From contig CM000429.1 of NCBI GenBank assembly GCA_000165345.1, positions 736,001 through 800,000 of the forward strand: a DNA stretch of 64,000 bases, given 5' to 3'. How positions within the stretch are numbered: position 1 is the first letter of the stretch; every line of letters starts with the position of its first letter. Positions 30,053-39,000 of this stretch are shown in pieces. Position numbers: made by a program.

Positions 30053-33000
30053 AATTATCTCTCTTTTTTTTTAGAAGAAATTTTGAAATTATACAATAAT
30101 ATAATAATCTTCTTTACAAGCCAATATCCCCAAGTAAAAGTAATTAGTACACTTTTTAATTCAACAAATACGATCAGTTGGTTACTCCTTTTTCTCTATC
30201 AATCCAATCCTGATCTTTAATGTAAATTTTTATACTATATTACTAATATTATTATTGACTAGTTTTTCTTATCCTTTTTACTCTTTAATTAATTATTTCT
30301 CATCTCAGAAAGCCCGCCGTCCCGTTGTTTGGCGCGCGCCATTTTTTTTTATAAGAATTAATGATAAAAAAAAATAAATAAGAATTTAAAAAAATAAGGG
30401 AAAAAAAAATTAGAGATAAAAATCATAGGAAAAGAAATAAATGATAAAATTCAGATAGAAAATAATGAAAAGAGAATAGTTTGAAAAATCACAGAAAAAA
30501 AAGATGGATAAATAGATTTTAGAAAATTTTATCTTCTTTTTGTCTGAATAAAATTTCTTATCTATTATTAATCTATCAAATTCTTTACTTTTCACATTAA
30601 ACCATAGTTATAAAGTGAAGAAAATGTAACACTAAAACTTGTATTGACTTGAAATATGGAACTCTTTACAAATTTTTAAAATAACTATTTTCAAAATTTG
30701 TGTGCATTATATTTTAATTTTGTGTGCATATAACAAAAATAATTAAAATTTGAATAAAATAATTTAATATTAATATTGATCGTTGAACATTAATAATTGT
30801 TTAACTCTGTAGGTTATTAAATCTTAAATTAAACTTTTGCTCTATTAGAAATAGCTGGAAATTTATCAGATCCAAAATTATTTGAAACAATATCGTCAGA
30901 TGATCTAACAACGAATCTTTGTGAATTTGGATTGGTATACTCAGATCTACTATTTCTCTTTTTAGCAGCAAAGTATATAATTCGAATTAAAGCTATTAAT
31001 ATTATGAATCCAATAAAAGATCCAAGTCCAATAAAATATGATGTAGCCATTGCTGCTCTTGCATTTGTTATACCAAATAAACTATGATCAAAACTTGTTG
31101 CAAAAGTTGCTACTTTAAATATTTCATTTAAGCTAAACCCTGTAGCTCCTGCATCTAATGCTGATAGTCTTGGACTTTGTTGTGGAGGTCCTTCATAGTA
31201 ATTATTCATTAAATTCAATTCTCCCTGGAAAGCTGTCTTCATATTTCTAAACTTGACTAACTTTAATGCTTCTTATTTTACTATTAATATAATAATTCTG
31301 TTTCTTTTCTTATGATAAAAGTTATTAAACTTTTCACTTTTTATTTATTCACAAAATTTTTTTTTGTATCTATTAAGACACTGCATTTTACAGATGCATA
31401 ACTACATGCATAATACTTTTTTTATGATGGCGGGCTTTTCATATAATTTTTTCAGACTATAATAAATAGTCCAATTTGTTTTACCATTCCAACCGCCCAA
31501 CACAGTAAACAATATAGTAGGAATTAATGTTAATATATATATATATATATTATAGCCGAGATAAGAAACAGTTTTTTAACACAAAATTAATTAAATGTAT
31601 AGTTAATCTCAAATCTATGTAACTTTTGTTTAAGGTCATTATAACCAAACTAGAATTGCTCTCAAGAATAGAGTAATTAATAACAAATATCAATACTTCT
31701 AACAATATTATTATTACATGGAGTAGAAATTACCACCTTTTTCTGTTAATACTGATACCATTAGTTAATTTTCTCAGTTCATTTATAAATTTTATTATTA
31801 TTATTTTAATTAAGTGGGGAAAATGCATGCACACGCGTTGGCGCACAATTCCCTCATTCTTCTAATTTTATTATTAATATTTAATAGAAAGAAAAATTAG
31901 GTAGAAAATTAATAAACAAAATATCAAAAGAGAAAAAAGAAGGAAGATTTTGCCAAATTTAGCTTAAAATCAACTCAACTCAATTAAAGGCTTGTCCTAC
32001 TATATTATTAACTTTCCAAAGAAATTATTGATATATAAATATTATGAGCTTCAATAATAATTTTAGAAATATTACACTTCTTTTATCATGATTATCTTTT
32101 AGGTATAATATATTTGTGAATAATAAATCTTAATATAATCAAGTAGTGTAGTAATTAATCTAACCAGATTTTCTTTAAAGAACAAAGTTATTAAAATAAC
32201 TATTATTAATATCATTATTATCTAATTAGATTAATTACTGATCAAGAATATTTTGTCTCAACTAGCCCAGTTCTGACTCTCTGGACCAATTTCTTGAACA
32301 TATTCTGAGTCTTGATCTAAAGTAGCAGAAGATTGATCAAAGTATTGATAATTTGTCTCATCCTCCTCCTGATCACCTGATCTCCCACCAATTAAAAACA
32401 AAGAACCAGCAATAATACATAACCCAAGAATACCAACTGGTAATCCAACAGCAATGGCAAGTGTAGCGTCTCCAGAATCTGGAGCAGTTTCTGTACAGCC
32501 TTCAGGCTTGCTACATGATCTTGTATCTTTAGAACTCTGACAAGTTGCATCAATTACACCTTCAGGGAAAGTAACAACTCTATCTCTAGTTTGAGTTCCA
32601 GAACAATCACAGCTTGACCAAGCACTCCATTCAGTATATTTACATCCTGGAGTGCATGCAACTCCTGAAGTACATGGCTCCTCTTCTAATGTTGGAGTAT
32701 CCTTGCATATTTCTCTCACTTTATTTTGTTCTTCTGATGTACCAGGTGGATTATAACCAAAAACCCCAATTTTTGTAAAATCAAAATCACGATACCTTCT
32801 TACTACTCCTTGATCACATTTTTCACTACAAACTGACCATTCTGACCAAACTGACATAACTGCAGTACATGATGCAGAGTTATCGTCACAATTTGCCAAA
32901 TTACACTTCTTTGATTCTGTTGGTAATTCTGTACAATTCTCTCCCTTTACTTCCCTATTTCTTGTAGTTGTTCCGCATCCACAAGTTACACTACAAGGTG

Positions 33001-36000: not shown

Positions 36001-39000
36001 GAGTGGTTGTGATTCTGCACTTTGCTCTGACGGAAAGGCATATAGCAAACGAACAAGGCCAATCCTCACTTCACCAAGAGGTTCTGGGGCTCCTTGTCCC
36101 AAGACAAGAGAGTTAAAGGAATGTACTAGTTCATATACATGCATGTCAAATTCATGTGTAGTTGGTCAATGGTCACCTTGGTCTCCATGCAGCGAAAACT
36201 GTACTATTGCTGTAAGAAGAAGAACTGTTCAACAAATTCCCTCTCCTGGTGGTACACCTTGTCCTCATTTGTTTGAGATTAATCCTGTGAGTAAATGTCA
36301 AGCTAACCCTTCATCCATATTGAATTTGGCAAATCAATTGTCATGCTCTACGGCGGATATTTTCCCTTGGGGCTCCTGGTCTGAATGTAGTTCTACCTGT
36401 GGTGGTGGATTTAAAATCAGAAGTAGAAATTCAGGCTTCTTTAAATATTCTGCAGAATCCTGTAATAATCAGCAATGCAGTGTCTATAATGTTGAAGAGT
36501 GTAAAATAAGTAATGATTCGAGCATCATTTACTCACAATTTAACAGACTTTGCCTCATTACTGGCTACTCAAACTCCGAAGACAGGCTTAAATTACTTGT
36601 AAATTATGGTCTAAATGTATAACACAACACTAAAACCATCTCATCACCATCAATTTTTTTCAATAAATCAAGTGCCAAAAAAGAGCAAATAACTTTTAAA
36701 ATGCCAGATGAACCATTTTATAGCCTGTACTTTTATTTTAATTTACATTATTAGAAGCTATATCAAATTATTTCAATTAATAATGCATTTATCTAACTCC
36801 TAAGATTCTTTCCTTATATTCTGATTAACATTATATTATTTGCTTGGTCAACCTGCTATTACTAATGTTCATTTTTAATATATTGCTATTTTCTTCTCAC
36901 TATCTTTTTTGAAACCTCATTGTCTTATTTTTATATCGTCCACATGCAAATGCAAATTTATGCAAGTGGAGGTTTCTGCCCATTTGTGCATGCAATACCG
37001 TTTTCAGAATTTATGTGGAAACAAATTTTAAAAATAAAGTTCAATCCATTCTTCTAAGTTTGCGGAATTAATATTAAATTTAGATATCTAAATATTATTA
37101 CTAAGATTATAATCCTTTTTTGGAAAAAAAAGTAAGAGTTTAGCTACTGTATTCATTTATCTATAACAATAAGAGTAAAAAGTTGTATTCATTAATATTG
37201 GAGTATCTTGCAAAATAATCAATTAGCTATATATAATAAAAATAATTAAGTGCATCATAAATATGATATACTCAATTATTTGTTATATGCAATTCCCAAA
37301 TTAAATTAAGTAATTTGTTAAACCCATATAAAAATTACTGCTTAGAAACTAAATGAGAGTTATTCTGTTTTTACCCCCTCCTCTTCTTCCTTCCTCTTAT
37401 TTGAAATATATCTTGAAATTAGTGAATGAATAAAATTTAAGAACACATTACTGTATGGTTAGTCTCTAGCAGAGAACTACTACTGCTTGAATTAATAGAA
37501 CTAGCAGTAGTTGAAGGCACGTTATTATTACTTGAATTACAGCAAGTAATATCCATATTATTTCCACTATTACTATTCAAATTTATATTCATACAATTAT
37601 TATTAATATTATCATTATTAAAAGTTTGAAAATCATTTAACCCAGGTGAATAGTTATTATCTCGTCCAGAATCCATTTTTCTTTGTTGTGGAATTCTGTC
37701 ATATATTCCTTTAGAAGGACTAAGTGGAGGAGGAGTTGTGAGTATGATTCCCTTTCTTCGAGCATCCAAGTACTTGATAGCTTTTTCCCTTGCCCTATTA
37801 AATCCAAACTTTCTGCTGCTAAACGTTTTAGATTTTCTAACTCCATTTTCAACAAAAAAAGCAAGCCAAGCTTCCATTCTACTATTCCAACTCACTCCTT
37901 TATACCCTGATTTGAATTGTGGATCTGAAAGTTGCCATCTATTTTTCTTCTCATTATTACCTCCAGAATTCAGTGAAACAGAGCTATTTAGTTGTTCTCC
38001 AGAGTTTGATACGCCATTCATGTTTGTGCTTTGTCTTCTGGAATTAGAATTTCCATTTTTATGAAATTGTTTCTGATTTAGCTCAAAGTATAGGTGATTT
38101 TGACCTTGATCAGACAACTTATTCAGTTCATTTACTCCAATTTTAATATTATTAACATCATACTCCTTCTCAATTGGCGTATCGTAGCTTAATCCCGTTC
38201 CAATCCCTGTTCCTGTTTGTCCTGTTCCTGTTCCTATTCCTCCTGAGCCAAGACCCACTCCAAGTCCAAGGCCAACTCTTGACCCTCCTCCATTAAAATT
38301 CAAATTGTTGATTAATCCTAATTGATTATTTGGATTTAACTTTGTTTGTTGGCTGTATACCATATTGTTGTTATTTCCATAACCACTTTCTCCAAAAATA
38401 TTGGGACAACCTGGAAATACTGAATTTTGATTTTGGATTACATTTGGTCTAAGCTTTGCAGAATTATATTGAATTTCATTATCCATTAAATTACCACCAT
38501 TTCCTCCACAAACTCCATTTTCAATTTCTTGAATATGGCCATTTGTTGGAAAATTTATATTTGGTCCACCAACAACACTTTTCCCAAACTGATTCTGTTG
38601 TTGGTATTTTGTTAAGTTTCCTGTTCCTGTATAACCACCTCCCATTAATGTCTCTTCTGGTAATCCAAAATAGAACAATGGAGCTGCTGTGGAAAATGGG
38701 ACAAAATTTACCTGTTCATTAATTCCATTGCTTGAAAAGAAAGGATTATTTTGAGGAAGTCCAGTAAAAGGAGGAGGGGTACTAATGCATAATGCCACTA
38801 AATTTAATAAATTTTGATTATTATTTGGAAACAATAATGGCTGACCAAAATATGGAATGAATTGTCCAGAAGATGTTGAAGTGCCTATTGAACTTACTCC
38901 ATTTGTTGTATTTGTTGAAGAAAGAAGCAAGTTAATCCCATTGAAATCTGGATTTTCTAAAGATCTAGATGATGTTGGAGAAACTGCCTGCTTTACATCA

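Follow-up and report, generated by a model that had tools for sequence, protein, structure and literature searches.

An ancient and previously published divergent pair of TSP1/PAN adhesin genes, TRAP-C1/CpTSP1 and CpTSP3, on chromosome 1 of Cryptosporidium parvum

The window analyzed here, the 64-kb stretch at positions 736,001 to 800,000 of contig CM000429.1 (GenBank assembly GCA_000165345.1), is AT-rich, with a GC content of ∼20-37% per kb, and is densely packed with intron-less open reading frames (ORFs). Two head-to-head genes in this window encode adhesins that combine TSP1 repeats (TSRs) with PAN/Apple domains, one of them anchored by a transmembrane (TM) segment and the other one soluble. 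As a whole, these observations are best explained, with high confidence, by the locus being the published pair TRAP-C1/CpTSP1 and CpTSP3 of Cryptosporidium parvum chromosome 1. The pair represents a gene-family arrangement that is both ancient and published, and the paralogy of the two genes, the contrast between the anchored and the soluble products, and their co-expression are all known already; real and important biology has been re-found here, with nothing new in the main finding. TRAP-C1 has long served as a marker for genotyping Cryptosporidium and is a candidate vaccine antigen; the CpTSP proteins are being actively studied as ligands in invasion.

The identification rests on full-length identity of both products. 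The minus-strand ORF at 32258..34354, with an ATG at 34321, yields a coding sequence (32258..34321; 687 amino acids plus stop) the translation of which is, residue for residue, the publicly deposited protein EAK88310.1, ‘thrombospondin related adhesive protein [Cryptosporidium parvum Iowa II]' (UniProt Q5CSA5). The plus-strand coding sequence at 35099..36622 (507 amino acids plus stop) is in the same manner identical to EAK88309.1, ‘TSP1 domain-containing protein TSP3 precursor' (UniProt Q5CSA4). The respective gene identifiers are cgd1_3500 (PMC10034466) and cgd1_3510 (PMC13095730), and neither protein shows a single mismatch to these references; nothing differs between the window and the published locus. 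The locus tags of the neighbors, which come from other assemblies, fit this placement, with …1g3520 for an AP2 gene and …1g3490 for a 137-amino acid ORF. The two start codons are separated by a divergent spacer of 777 bp (34322..35098; 23% GC) that is presumed to be a shared regulatory region.

TRAP-C1 consists of a signal peptide, a PAN domain, a TSR, a second PAN domain, five further TSRs, a TM segment and an acidic tail. All features of this protein are on the minus strand. Pfam detects six TSP1_spondin stretches (154 bits, compared with the cutoff of 41), in agreement with the six WxxW motifs at amino acids 160, 318, 379, 437, 492 and 565. TSR1 (33704..33871; amino acids ∼151-206) contains CATTCTVSTWSSW, and the TSR2-TSR6 array, delineated from the Pfam TSP1_spondin/TSP_1 matches and the WxxW positions, occupies 32486..33388 (amino acids ∼312-612). 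The first PAN domain (33872..34126; amino acids ∼66-150) has no Pfam match at E ≤ 1 but is collinear with a PAN_1 domain of TSP3 that scores above the threshold, and is modeled with a predicted local distance difference test score (pLDDT) of 79-91; the second one (33404..33694; amino acids ∼210-306), which starts with CPQYGVSILGWGC, reaches 21.3 bits with PAN_4, for which the cutoff is 27, and was delineated from the family alignment and a fold search. For the latter, an AlphaFold2 model of residues 60-375 (mean pLDDT 74) was compared with known structures using Foldseek. The closest structures are apple domains, those of coagulation factor XI and plasma prekallikrein (E = 8e-7 to 6e-6, probability 1.00), with the PAN domains of AMA1 ranking next, so that, as judged from the model, both PAN folds of TRAP-C1 are real.

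The hydropathy profile of TRAP-C1 shows an N-terminal signal-like segment (window at amino acids 3-5) and one C-terminal hydrophobic segment. The latter corresponds to the TM segment at 32390..32458, that is, amino acids 622-644 according to UniProt, the range quoted in PMC13095730, with the Kyte-Doolittle windows covering amino acids ∼617-649. The cytoplasmic tail (32261..32389; amino acids 645-687) is 43 residues long, with 11 acidic residues and only one basic residue; it includes NYQYFD and SEYVQEIGPES and ends with …ESQNWAS, which places W685 at position -3. The tail pattern Y-x-Y-[FLM]-[DE]...E-[YF]-[VI]-x-E-[IL]-G-P-[ED]-x-x-x-W-A-[SE] is preserved in 10 Cryptosporidium species, from C. 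parvum to C. muris, C. andersoni and C. serpentis, with the Trp and GP[ED] invariant; by this measure, the tail is under strong constraint. In the same 10 species, the TM segment retains A-x-A-[IV]-G-x-P and several Gly, that is, small and helix-breaking residues, and cgd1_3500 has been listed as a candidate rhomboid substrate, in silico only (PMC13095730). With Plasmodium TRAP and Toxoplasma MIC2, TRAP-C1 has in common the signal peptide, the TSR(s), the single TM segment, the short acidic tail with a near-terminal Trp, and the micronemal and surface location; unlike these proteins, it carries two PAN/Apple domains in place of the vWA/I domain (PMC5146892).

TSP3, in which all features are on the plus strand, consists of a signal peptide, PAN1, TSR1, a 32-residue insert, PAN2, TSR2-TSR4 and a conserved C-terminal region of 40 amino acids, without a TM segment. 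The first PAN/Apple domain (35165..35416; amino acids 23-106) is recognized by Pfam as PAN_1, with 30.4 bits compared with the cutoff of 21.4 and the best stretch at amino acids 30-91. It is followed by TSR1 (35417..35578; amino acids 107-160), which contains CATTCTVSSWSSW, and by the second PAN/Apple domain (35696..35962; amino acids 200-288), which starts with CPNYDVGILGWGC and was placed by the family alignment, the PAN_4 score of 18.9 bits being below the threshold of 27. The TSR2-TSR4 array (35963..36496; amino acids 289-466) is supported by Pfam matches and WxxW motifs at amino acids 298, 358 and 424; altogether, TSP3 contains four TSP1_spondin stretches (100.6 bits) and four WxxW positions. 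The C-terminal region that follows (36497..36619; amino acids 467-507) harbors the motif Q-[FL]-N-R-x-C-L-[IV]-[TS]-x-[YF]-x-N with a lone conserved Cys, which is retained in seven species including C. muris. These 40 residues lie outside any TSR or PAN domain and have no Pfam match; they may be an interaction or oligomerization element. The Kyte-Doolittle profile reveals a signal-like N-terminus and no further hydrophobic stretch (maximum 1.1), and a glycosylphosphatidylinositol anchor or a second TM segment was rejected because there is no C-terminal hydrophobic segment. Lacking a TM segment, TSP3 is not a member of the TRAP/MIC2 adhesins. The initial annotation, which was made from the DNA sequence alone, had described the ORFs, the 777-bp spacer, the domain order and the restriction of the TM segment and tail to one copy correctly throughout; the assignment of the pair to TSP1/PAN adhesin paralogs was borne out by Pfam, the apple matches of the fold search and BLASTP, and that of a TRAP-like type I form with an acidic tail and Trp at -3, accompanied by a soluble form, by hydropathy and tail composition.

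The two proteins share the PAN/Apple-TSR-PAN/Apple-TSR start and align with 29% identity over 439 collinear residues (BLASTP, E = 6e-40), an alignment that spans CATTCTVS(T/S)WSSW and (Y)G/DV(S/G)ILGWGC. Each has a signal peptide and one or more TSP1 repeats, as befits the CpTSP family (CpTSP1-12), in which the alternation of PAN and TSR has been reported for CpTSP1 and CpTSP3-6, and a TM segment for TSP1 and TSP6 alone, ‘analogous to ... MIC2 or ... TRAP' (John et al., PMC10034466). Both genes thus belong to the CpTSP1/3/4/5(/6) subfamily, which is defined by the alternating PAN/Apple and TSR start. In the initial annotation, the near-identical motifs were taken as a signature of the pair. 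However, TSP1, TSP3, TSP4 and TSP5 all carry ILGWGC and C[AS]TTCxVxxWSxW, and recognizable versions are found in the homologs from Neospora and Cyclospora (MAFFT alignment of the shared module). As judged by these alignments, the similarity between TRAP-C1 and TSP3 is far beyond chance but is family-wide rather than pair-specific.

The divergent arrangement is old. Five other species share the layout of a minus-strand TSP1 ortholog, a plus-strand TSP3 ortholog and a downstream AP2 gene, with spacers of 294 bp in C. muris, 1111 bp in C. bovis, 582 bp in C. felis, 761 bp in chipmunk genotype I and 800 bp in C. canis. Because the pair is present in C. muris and four other species, it is older than the split between gastric and intestinal Cryptosporidium. 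It is one old branch point in a family of four to five members that was present in the common ancestor of the sampled gastric and intestinal species. Outside this genus, the Neospora caninum homolog P0027 resembles TRAP-C1 in the PAN-TSR-PAN-TSRn architecture, followed by a TM segment and an acidic tail with a Trp, and carries ILGWGC and CxTSC..V..WS.W; it differs in the low identity (26-27%) and in the longer tail, with the Trp 12 residues from the end instead of -3. In Toxoplasma, both C. parvum genes find their best match in TGME49_209060 (PMC13095730), orthology of which to the Neospora protein is not assumed. From these comparisons, the anchored form is likely ancestral, with the soluble TSP3, TSP4 and TSP5 derived; since the Neospora homolog retains the TM segment and the acidic tail with the Trp, the loss of the anchor in TSP3 appears plausible. 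The gene order in the region from 24774 to 49472 of the window is the same in C. parvum and C. muris (DS989738.1), namely, F-actin capping beta, PCI/eIF3m, a small ORF, TSP1, TSP3, AP2, RRM and a large TPR protein; the locus is therefore part of a conserved synteny block.

The position of the two genes within the family was examined by an exhaustive HMMER search, with the PAN-TSR-PAN region of TSP3 as the query, against 1.84 billion representative sequences, complemented by name look-ups. The C. muris TSP4-like protein (170 bits) and CpTSP4 (cgd8_150; 157 bits) scored higher than the C. muris TSP1 ortholog (109 bits) and the TSP1 representative (92.5 bits). The all-against-all BLASTP identities are 33-34% for TSP3-TSP4, 32% for TSP1-TSP4 and 35-37% for TSP4-TSP5, compared with 28-29% for TSP1-TSP3, and the mean Kimura distances are 1.25 for TSP3-TSP4, 1.41 for TSP1-TSP4 and 1.48 for TSP1-TSP3. 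By these measures, neither gene of the pair is closer to the other one than it is to CpTSP4, which lies on chromosome 8. CpTSP4 is the nearest paralog of TSP3 by both score and distance. It too is soluble, with a signal peptide, the PAN-TSR-PAN-TSR order and no TM segment; it differs in having only two TSRs, a low-complexity C-terminus and no TSP neighbor. The possibility that TSP5 and TSP4 form another tandem pair on chromosome 8 was considered and dropped, as TSP5 does not lie next to TSP4.

Phylogenetic trees were constructed from 282 trimmed alignment columns as neighbor-joining (NJ) bootstraps only, with BLOSUM62, identity and Kimura distances. The gastric species (C. muris, C. andersoni or C. 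serpentis) are represented in the TSP1, TSP3 and TSP4 groups, and TSP5 comes from C. ubiquitum and one further assembly. Each of the four orthogroups is monophyletic at 100%, TSP4 and TSP5 join with ∼70% support, and the rooted clade of TSP1 and TSP3 is recovered in 3-13% of the bootstraps, in trees with an ambiguous root and without TSP6. These results bear directly on the scenario of the initial annotation, in which a local tandem or inverted duplication produced sister genes, one of which then lost the TM segment and tail and now serves as a soluble decoy or co-ligand. The two genes are indeed adjacent, inverted, collinear through four to five domains and co-expressed, the TM form is probably ancestral, and the best-supported split of the unrooted tree (70%) puts TSP1 and TSP3 together, opposite TSP4 and TSP5. 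Nevertheless, this scenario is unlikely: besides the low support for the rooted clade and the greater similarity of TSP4 to each gene, the shared motifs are family-wide, and any duplication would predate the split between C. muris and C. parvum. The initial annotation had itself named as refuting the outcome that the two genes are not each other's closest relatives, and the scores, distances and bootstraps obtained here speak against its scenario. The interpretation thus holds only in part: of the proposed history, the direction of change, from an anchored to a soluble form, is plausible given the anchored Neospora homolog, whereas the sisterhood of the two genes, that is, their being each other's closest relatives, is unsupported and the duplication is not recent. 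The decoy role finds no support, as the data searched contain nothing that bears on it.

Published data show that the two genes are co-expressed, as the initial annotation had suggested. TSP3 and TRAP-C1 belong to the same 12-h (immature meront) expression cluster (Mauzy et al. 2012, PMC3305300) and, according to a 2026 study on rhomboids, to the same hyperLOPIT spatial-proteomics cluster, with the same expression pattern (PMC13095730). By protein abundance in sporozoites, both rank in the top quartile. CpTSP1 is located at the surface and in the micronemes of sporozoites and meronts (PMC10034466), and TSP3 is among the experimentally validated microneme proteins. C-mannosylated peptides, with modified WxxW motifs, have been mapped on both proteins, YGECDINCVLGDWTQWSGCDSALCSDGK being the one of TSP3, and peptides that are C-mannosylated and O-fucosylated come from the TSR2-6 array of TRAP-C1 (PMC10034466). 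For the PAN domains of CpTSP1 and CpTSP3-6, the galactose-binding lectins Toxoplasma MIC4 and Sarcocystis SML-2 have been proposed as functional analogs (PMC10034466). MIC4 (in the MIC1-MIC4-MIC6 complex) and SML-2 are, like TSP3, soluble micronemal PAN proteins but, unlike both TSP3 and TRAP-C1, lack TSRs.

TRAP-C1 would work in the manner of TRAP and MIC2: its ectodomain, with lectin-like PAN domains and TSRs, would bind host glycans or glycosaminoglycans, the acidic tail with the invariant Trp at -3 would provide the link to the actomyosin gliding machinery, and a rhomboid protease would then shed the protein. The connector that engages the tail is more likely to be of the glideosome-associated connector (GAC) type than aldolase. 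The glideosome-associated connector is now the favored bridge. The coupling via aldolase, which the initial annotation had adopted, has been overturned for the TRAP/MIC2 tails by genetic experiments in Toxoplasma (PMC4169498). TSP3, by analogy with its paralog CpTSP4, would leave the micronemes as a soluble lectin-like adhesin. CpTSP4, the closest relative of TSP3 that has been characterized, is stored in the micronemes and fully secreted, and a basic patch in its PAN1 domain mediates heparin binding. This patch contains seven K/R residues in TSP4, compared with one in TSP3 and three in TSP1, and the heparin-binding motif was accordingly rejected as a shared ligand site. Since the patch is not conserved in TSP3 and TSP1, different ligands are likely, and by this comparison the specificity of TSP3 probably differs from that of TSP4.

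In another reading, TSP3 would be carried to the micronemes and the surface bound to anchored TRAP-C1, with a shared promoter balancing the stoichiometry, as in the Toxoplasma MIC2-M2AP and MIC6-MIC1-MIC4 complexes. The common spatial-proteomics cluster and expression pattern, the common 12-h cluster and the high abundance of both proteins in sporozoites would be expected of such a complex, as would the retention of the pairing in six of the six species sampled and the C-terminal non-TSR segment of TSP3 with its conserved Cys; furthermore, the ectodomains of TRAP and MIC2 form adhesin complexes, and the partners of the CpTSPs are unknown (PMC10034466). This possibility is nonetheless doubtful, given that a search for interaction data came up empty, that CpTSP4 is soluble and micronemal as well, yet unlinked to any TM paralog, and that many genes of this genome are arranged as divergent pairs.

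The spacer was analyzed by alignment of the four intestinal species C. parvum, chipmunk genotype I, C. canis and C. felis, together with motif scans. Two conserved blocks and a further site stand out. Block A (34596..34616, plus strand; TTGCATGTGTGGACCAATAAT) includes TGCATGTG, with a TGCATG AP2-type core and CCAAT, and is near-invariant in the four species. The first E2F-like site (34685..34696, minus strand) is GGCGGG, with CCGCC at ∼34687-34692, and occupies an equivalent place in all four. Block B (34784..34824, plus strand; AAATATCCACACTTGCCGCCAAAACAAATTAGCATGTGAAC), also conserved in the four, combines the E2F-like TTTTGGCGGC, of the form TTTTGGCGG(C/G), on the minus strand at 34798-34805 with a plus-strand GCATGTG at 34815-34821 that starts 10 nt downstream. 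The 294-bp spacer of C. muris holds a reduced version, AAGGCGCTAA (minus strand; GGCGC) followed by GCATGT 35 nt later. In the window, TTGGCGGS occurs five times compared with 0.16 expected, and GCATGTG nine times compared with 2.3 expected; a G-box (GGGG) is absent from the C. parvum spacer. The two over-represented motifs correspond to the E2F-like (GGCGGG) and AP2_1 motif families described previously (PMC3734150), and TGCAT is a known ApiAP2 site (PMC4117751).

The spacer is therefore compatible with a putative shared promoter, as the initial annotation had proposed: the genes are head-to-head within less than 1 kb, the arrangement is retained in five other species, the candidate motifs are conserved and co-expression is documented in the literature. 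However, over half the regulatory peaks in the assay for transposase-accessible chromatin (ATAC) in C. parvum carry the annotation of a bidirectional promoter, E2F being the prevailing motif (bioRxiv 10.1101/2025.01.17.633476), and the head-to-head arrangement is typical of this compact genome and not special.

Several points weigh against the interpretation of the locus as an anchored TRAP-like adhesin paired with a soluble paralog under common control. First, hmmscan against Pfam detects no vWA/I domain in TRAP-C1 at E ≤ 1, and CpTSPs have been reported to be free of VWA domains (PMC5146892); TRAP-C1 is therefore TRAP-like and not a canonical TRAP/MIC2 ortholog or a strict member of that family. 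Second, the NJ trees include a long outgroup branch and the root position is ambiguous among TSP1, TSP3 and TSP4+5, so that the sisterhood of TSP1 and TSP3 is unsupported rather than firmly rejected; moreover, CpTSP6 was not recognizable among the retrieved proteins and is missing from the tree. Third, the papers searched contain neither genetic nor biochemical experiments, such as a knockout or a tail-binding study, that probe whether TRAP-C1 acts in Cryptosporidium gliding, what its tail binds or whether rhomboids cleave it, and they report no ligand or function of TSP3. Finally, the spacer motifs are inferred from conservation only, and a single TGCAT in 777 bp is close to the chance level.

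Immediately downstream of TSP3, in a convergent orientation, is the AP2-domain gene (37437-39107, minus strand; Pfam AP2, 44 bits), which carries the …1g3520 tags and hence is cgd1_3520; an AP2 gene is found at the same position in C. muris, C. bovis, C. felis, C. canis and chipmunk genotype I. The AP2 domain of cgd1_3520 binds TGCAT and the G-box, its transcript peaks at 12 h post-infection, and the protein groups with Plasmodium PF14_0633, the P. berghei ortholog of which regulates sporozoite-specific genes (PMC4117751). The 12-h peak coincides with that of TRAP-C1 and TSP3. The cgd1_3520 product may regulate the adjacent pair via the conserved TGCATG block. A far broader proposal, that TRAP-C1, TSP3 and cgd1_3520 constitute a conserved regulatory and functional module in six species, in which the AP2-Sp-like cgd1_3520 protein and E2F/DP would drive the TGCATG/GGCGG core, echoing the control of sporozoite-specific genes by Plasmodium AP2-Sp, and the products would form a complex of anchored and soluble adhesins, seems improbable.

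Alternatively, the two genes might resemble each other because gene conversion still operates between them as inverted neighbors, in place of descent and constraint. The pertinent observation is a 39-nt inverted match (33833-33871 versus 35417-35455) that encodes CATTCTVS(T/S)WSSW and is identical at 35 of the 39 positions in C. parvum; at the protein level, this first motif is the same in both genes of C. tyzzeri and matches at 12 of the 13 positions in C. parvum and C. hominis, the near-identity being limited to these three species. As a general explanation gene conversion is very improbable, considering that only 22-27 of the 39 positions are identical in chipmunk genotype I, C. canis, C. 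felis, C. bovis and C. muris, that the protein identity outside this stretch is 29%, that the monophyly of the orthogroups excludes concerted evolution at the gene scale, and that three of the four differences are synonymous, so that strong codon bias can explain the shared codons. The match itself could be a micro gene-conversion tract or a chance convergence under codon bias; as the general source of CATTCTVSxWSSW, gene conversion was rejected, its effect reaching no further than 39 nt and the parvum/hominis/tyzzeri clade.

Beyond the published knowledge of the pair, the increments, which would be relevant only to those already engaged in the design of knockouts, interaction screens and promoter constructs, are that the two genes are not demonstrably sisters, that the motifs are family-wide, that the arrangement, together with a compact, putative E2F-like/GCATG core, is conserved in the six species sampled, and that the neighboring gene encodes a conserved TGCAT-binding AP2 protein.

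Two other neighbors deserve mention. The 137-amino acid ORF at 30829-31242 (minus strand), with cgd1_3490-type tags, has a hydrophobic segment and no Pfam match, and is conserved directly downstream of TSP1 in C. muris (136 amino acids), C. felis (138 amino acids) and chipmunk genotype I (140 amino acids). On the plus strand, a 925-amino acid ORF (52091-54868) combines a PAN_1 match just at the threshold (21.6 bits) with a mucin-like Ser/Thr region. An exact match to the 925-amino acid translation is absent from the public protein collection, and therefore, the annotated gene model probably differs. By its position, this ORF is probably cgd1_3550, an ‘APPLE domain-containing' microneme protein (PMC10865969), and it is a third gene for a secretory protein with a PAN domain, no more than 16 kb away from the pair.

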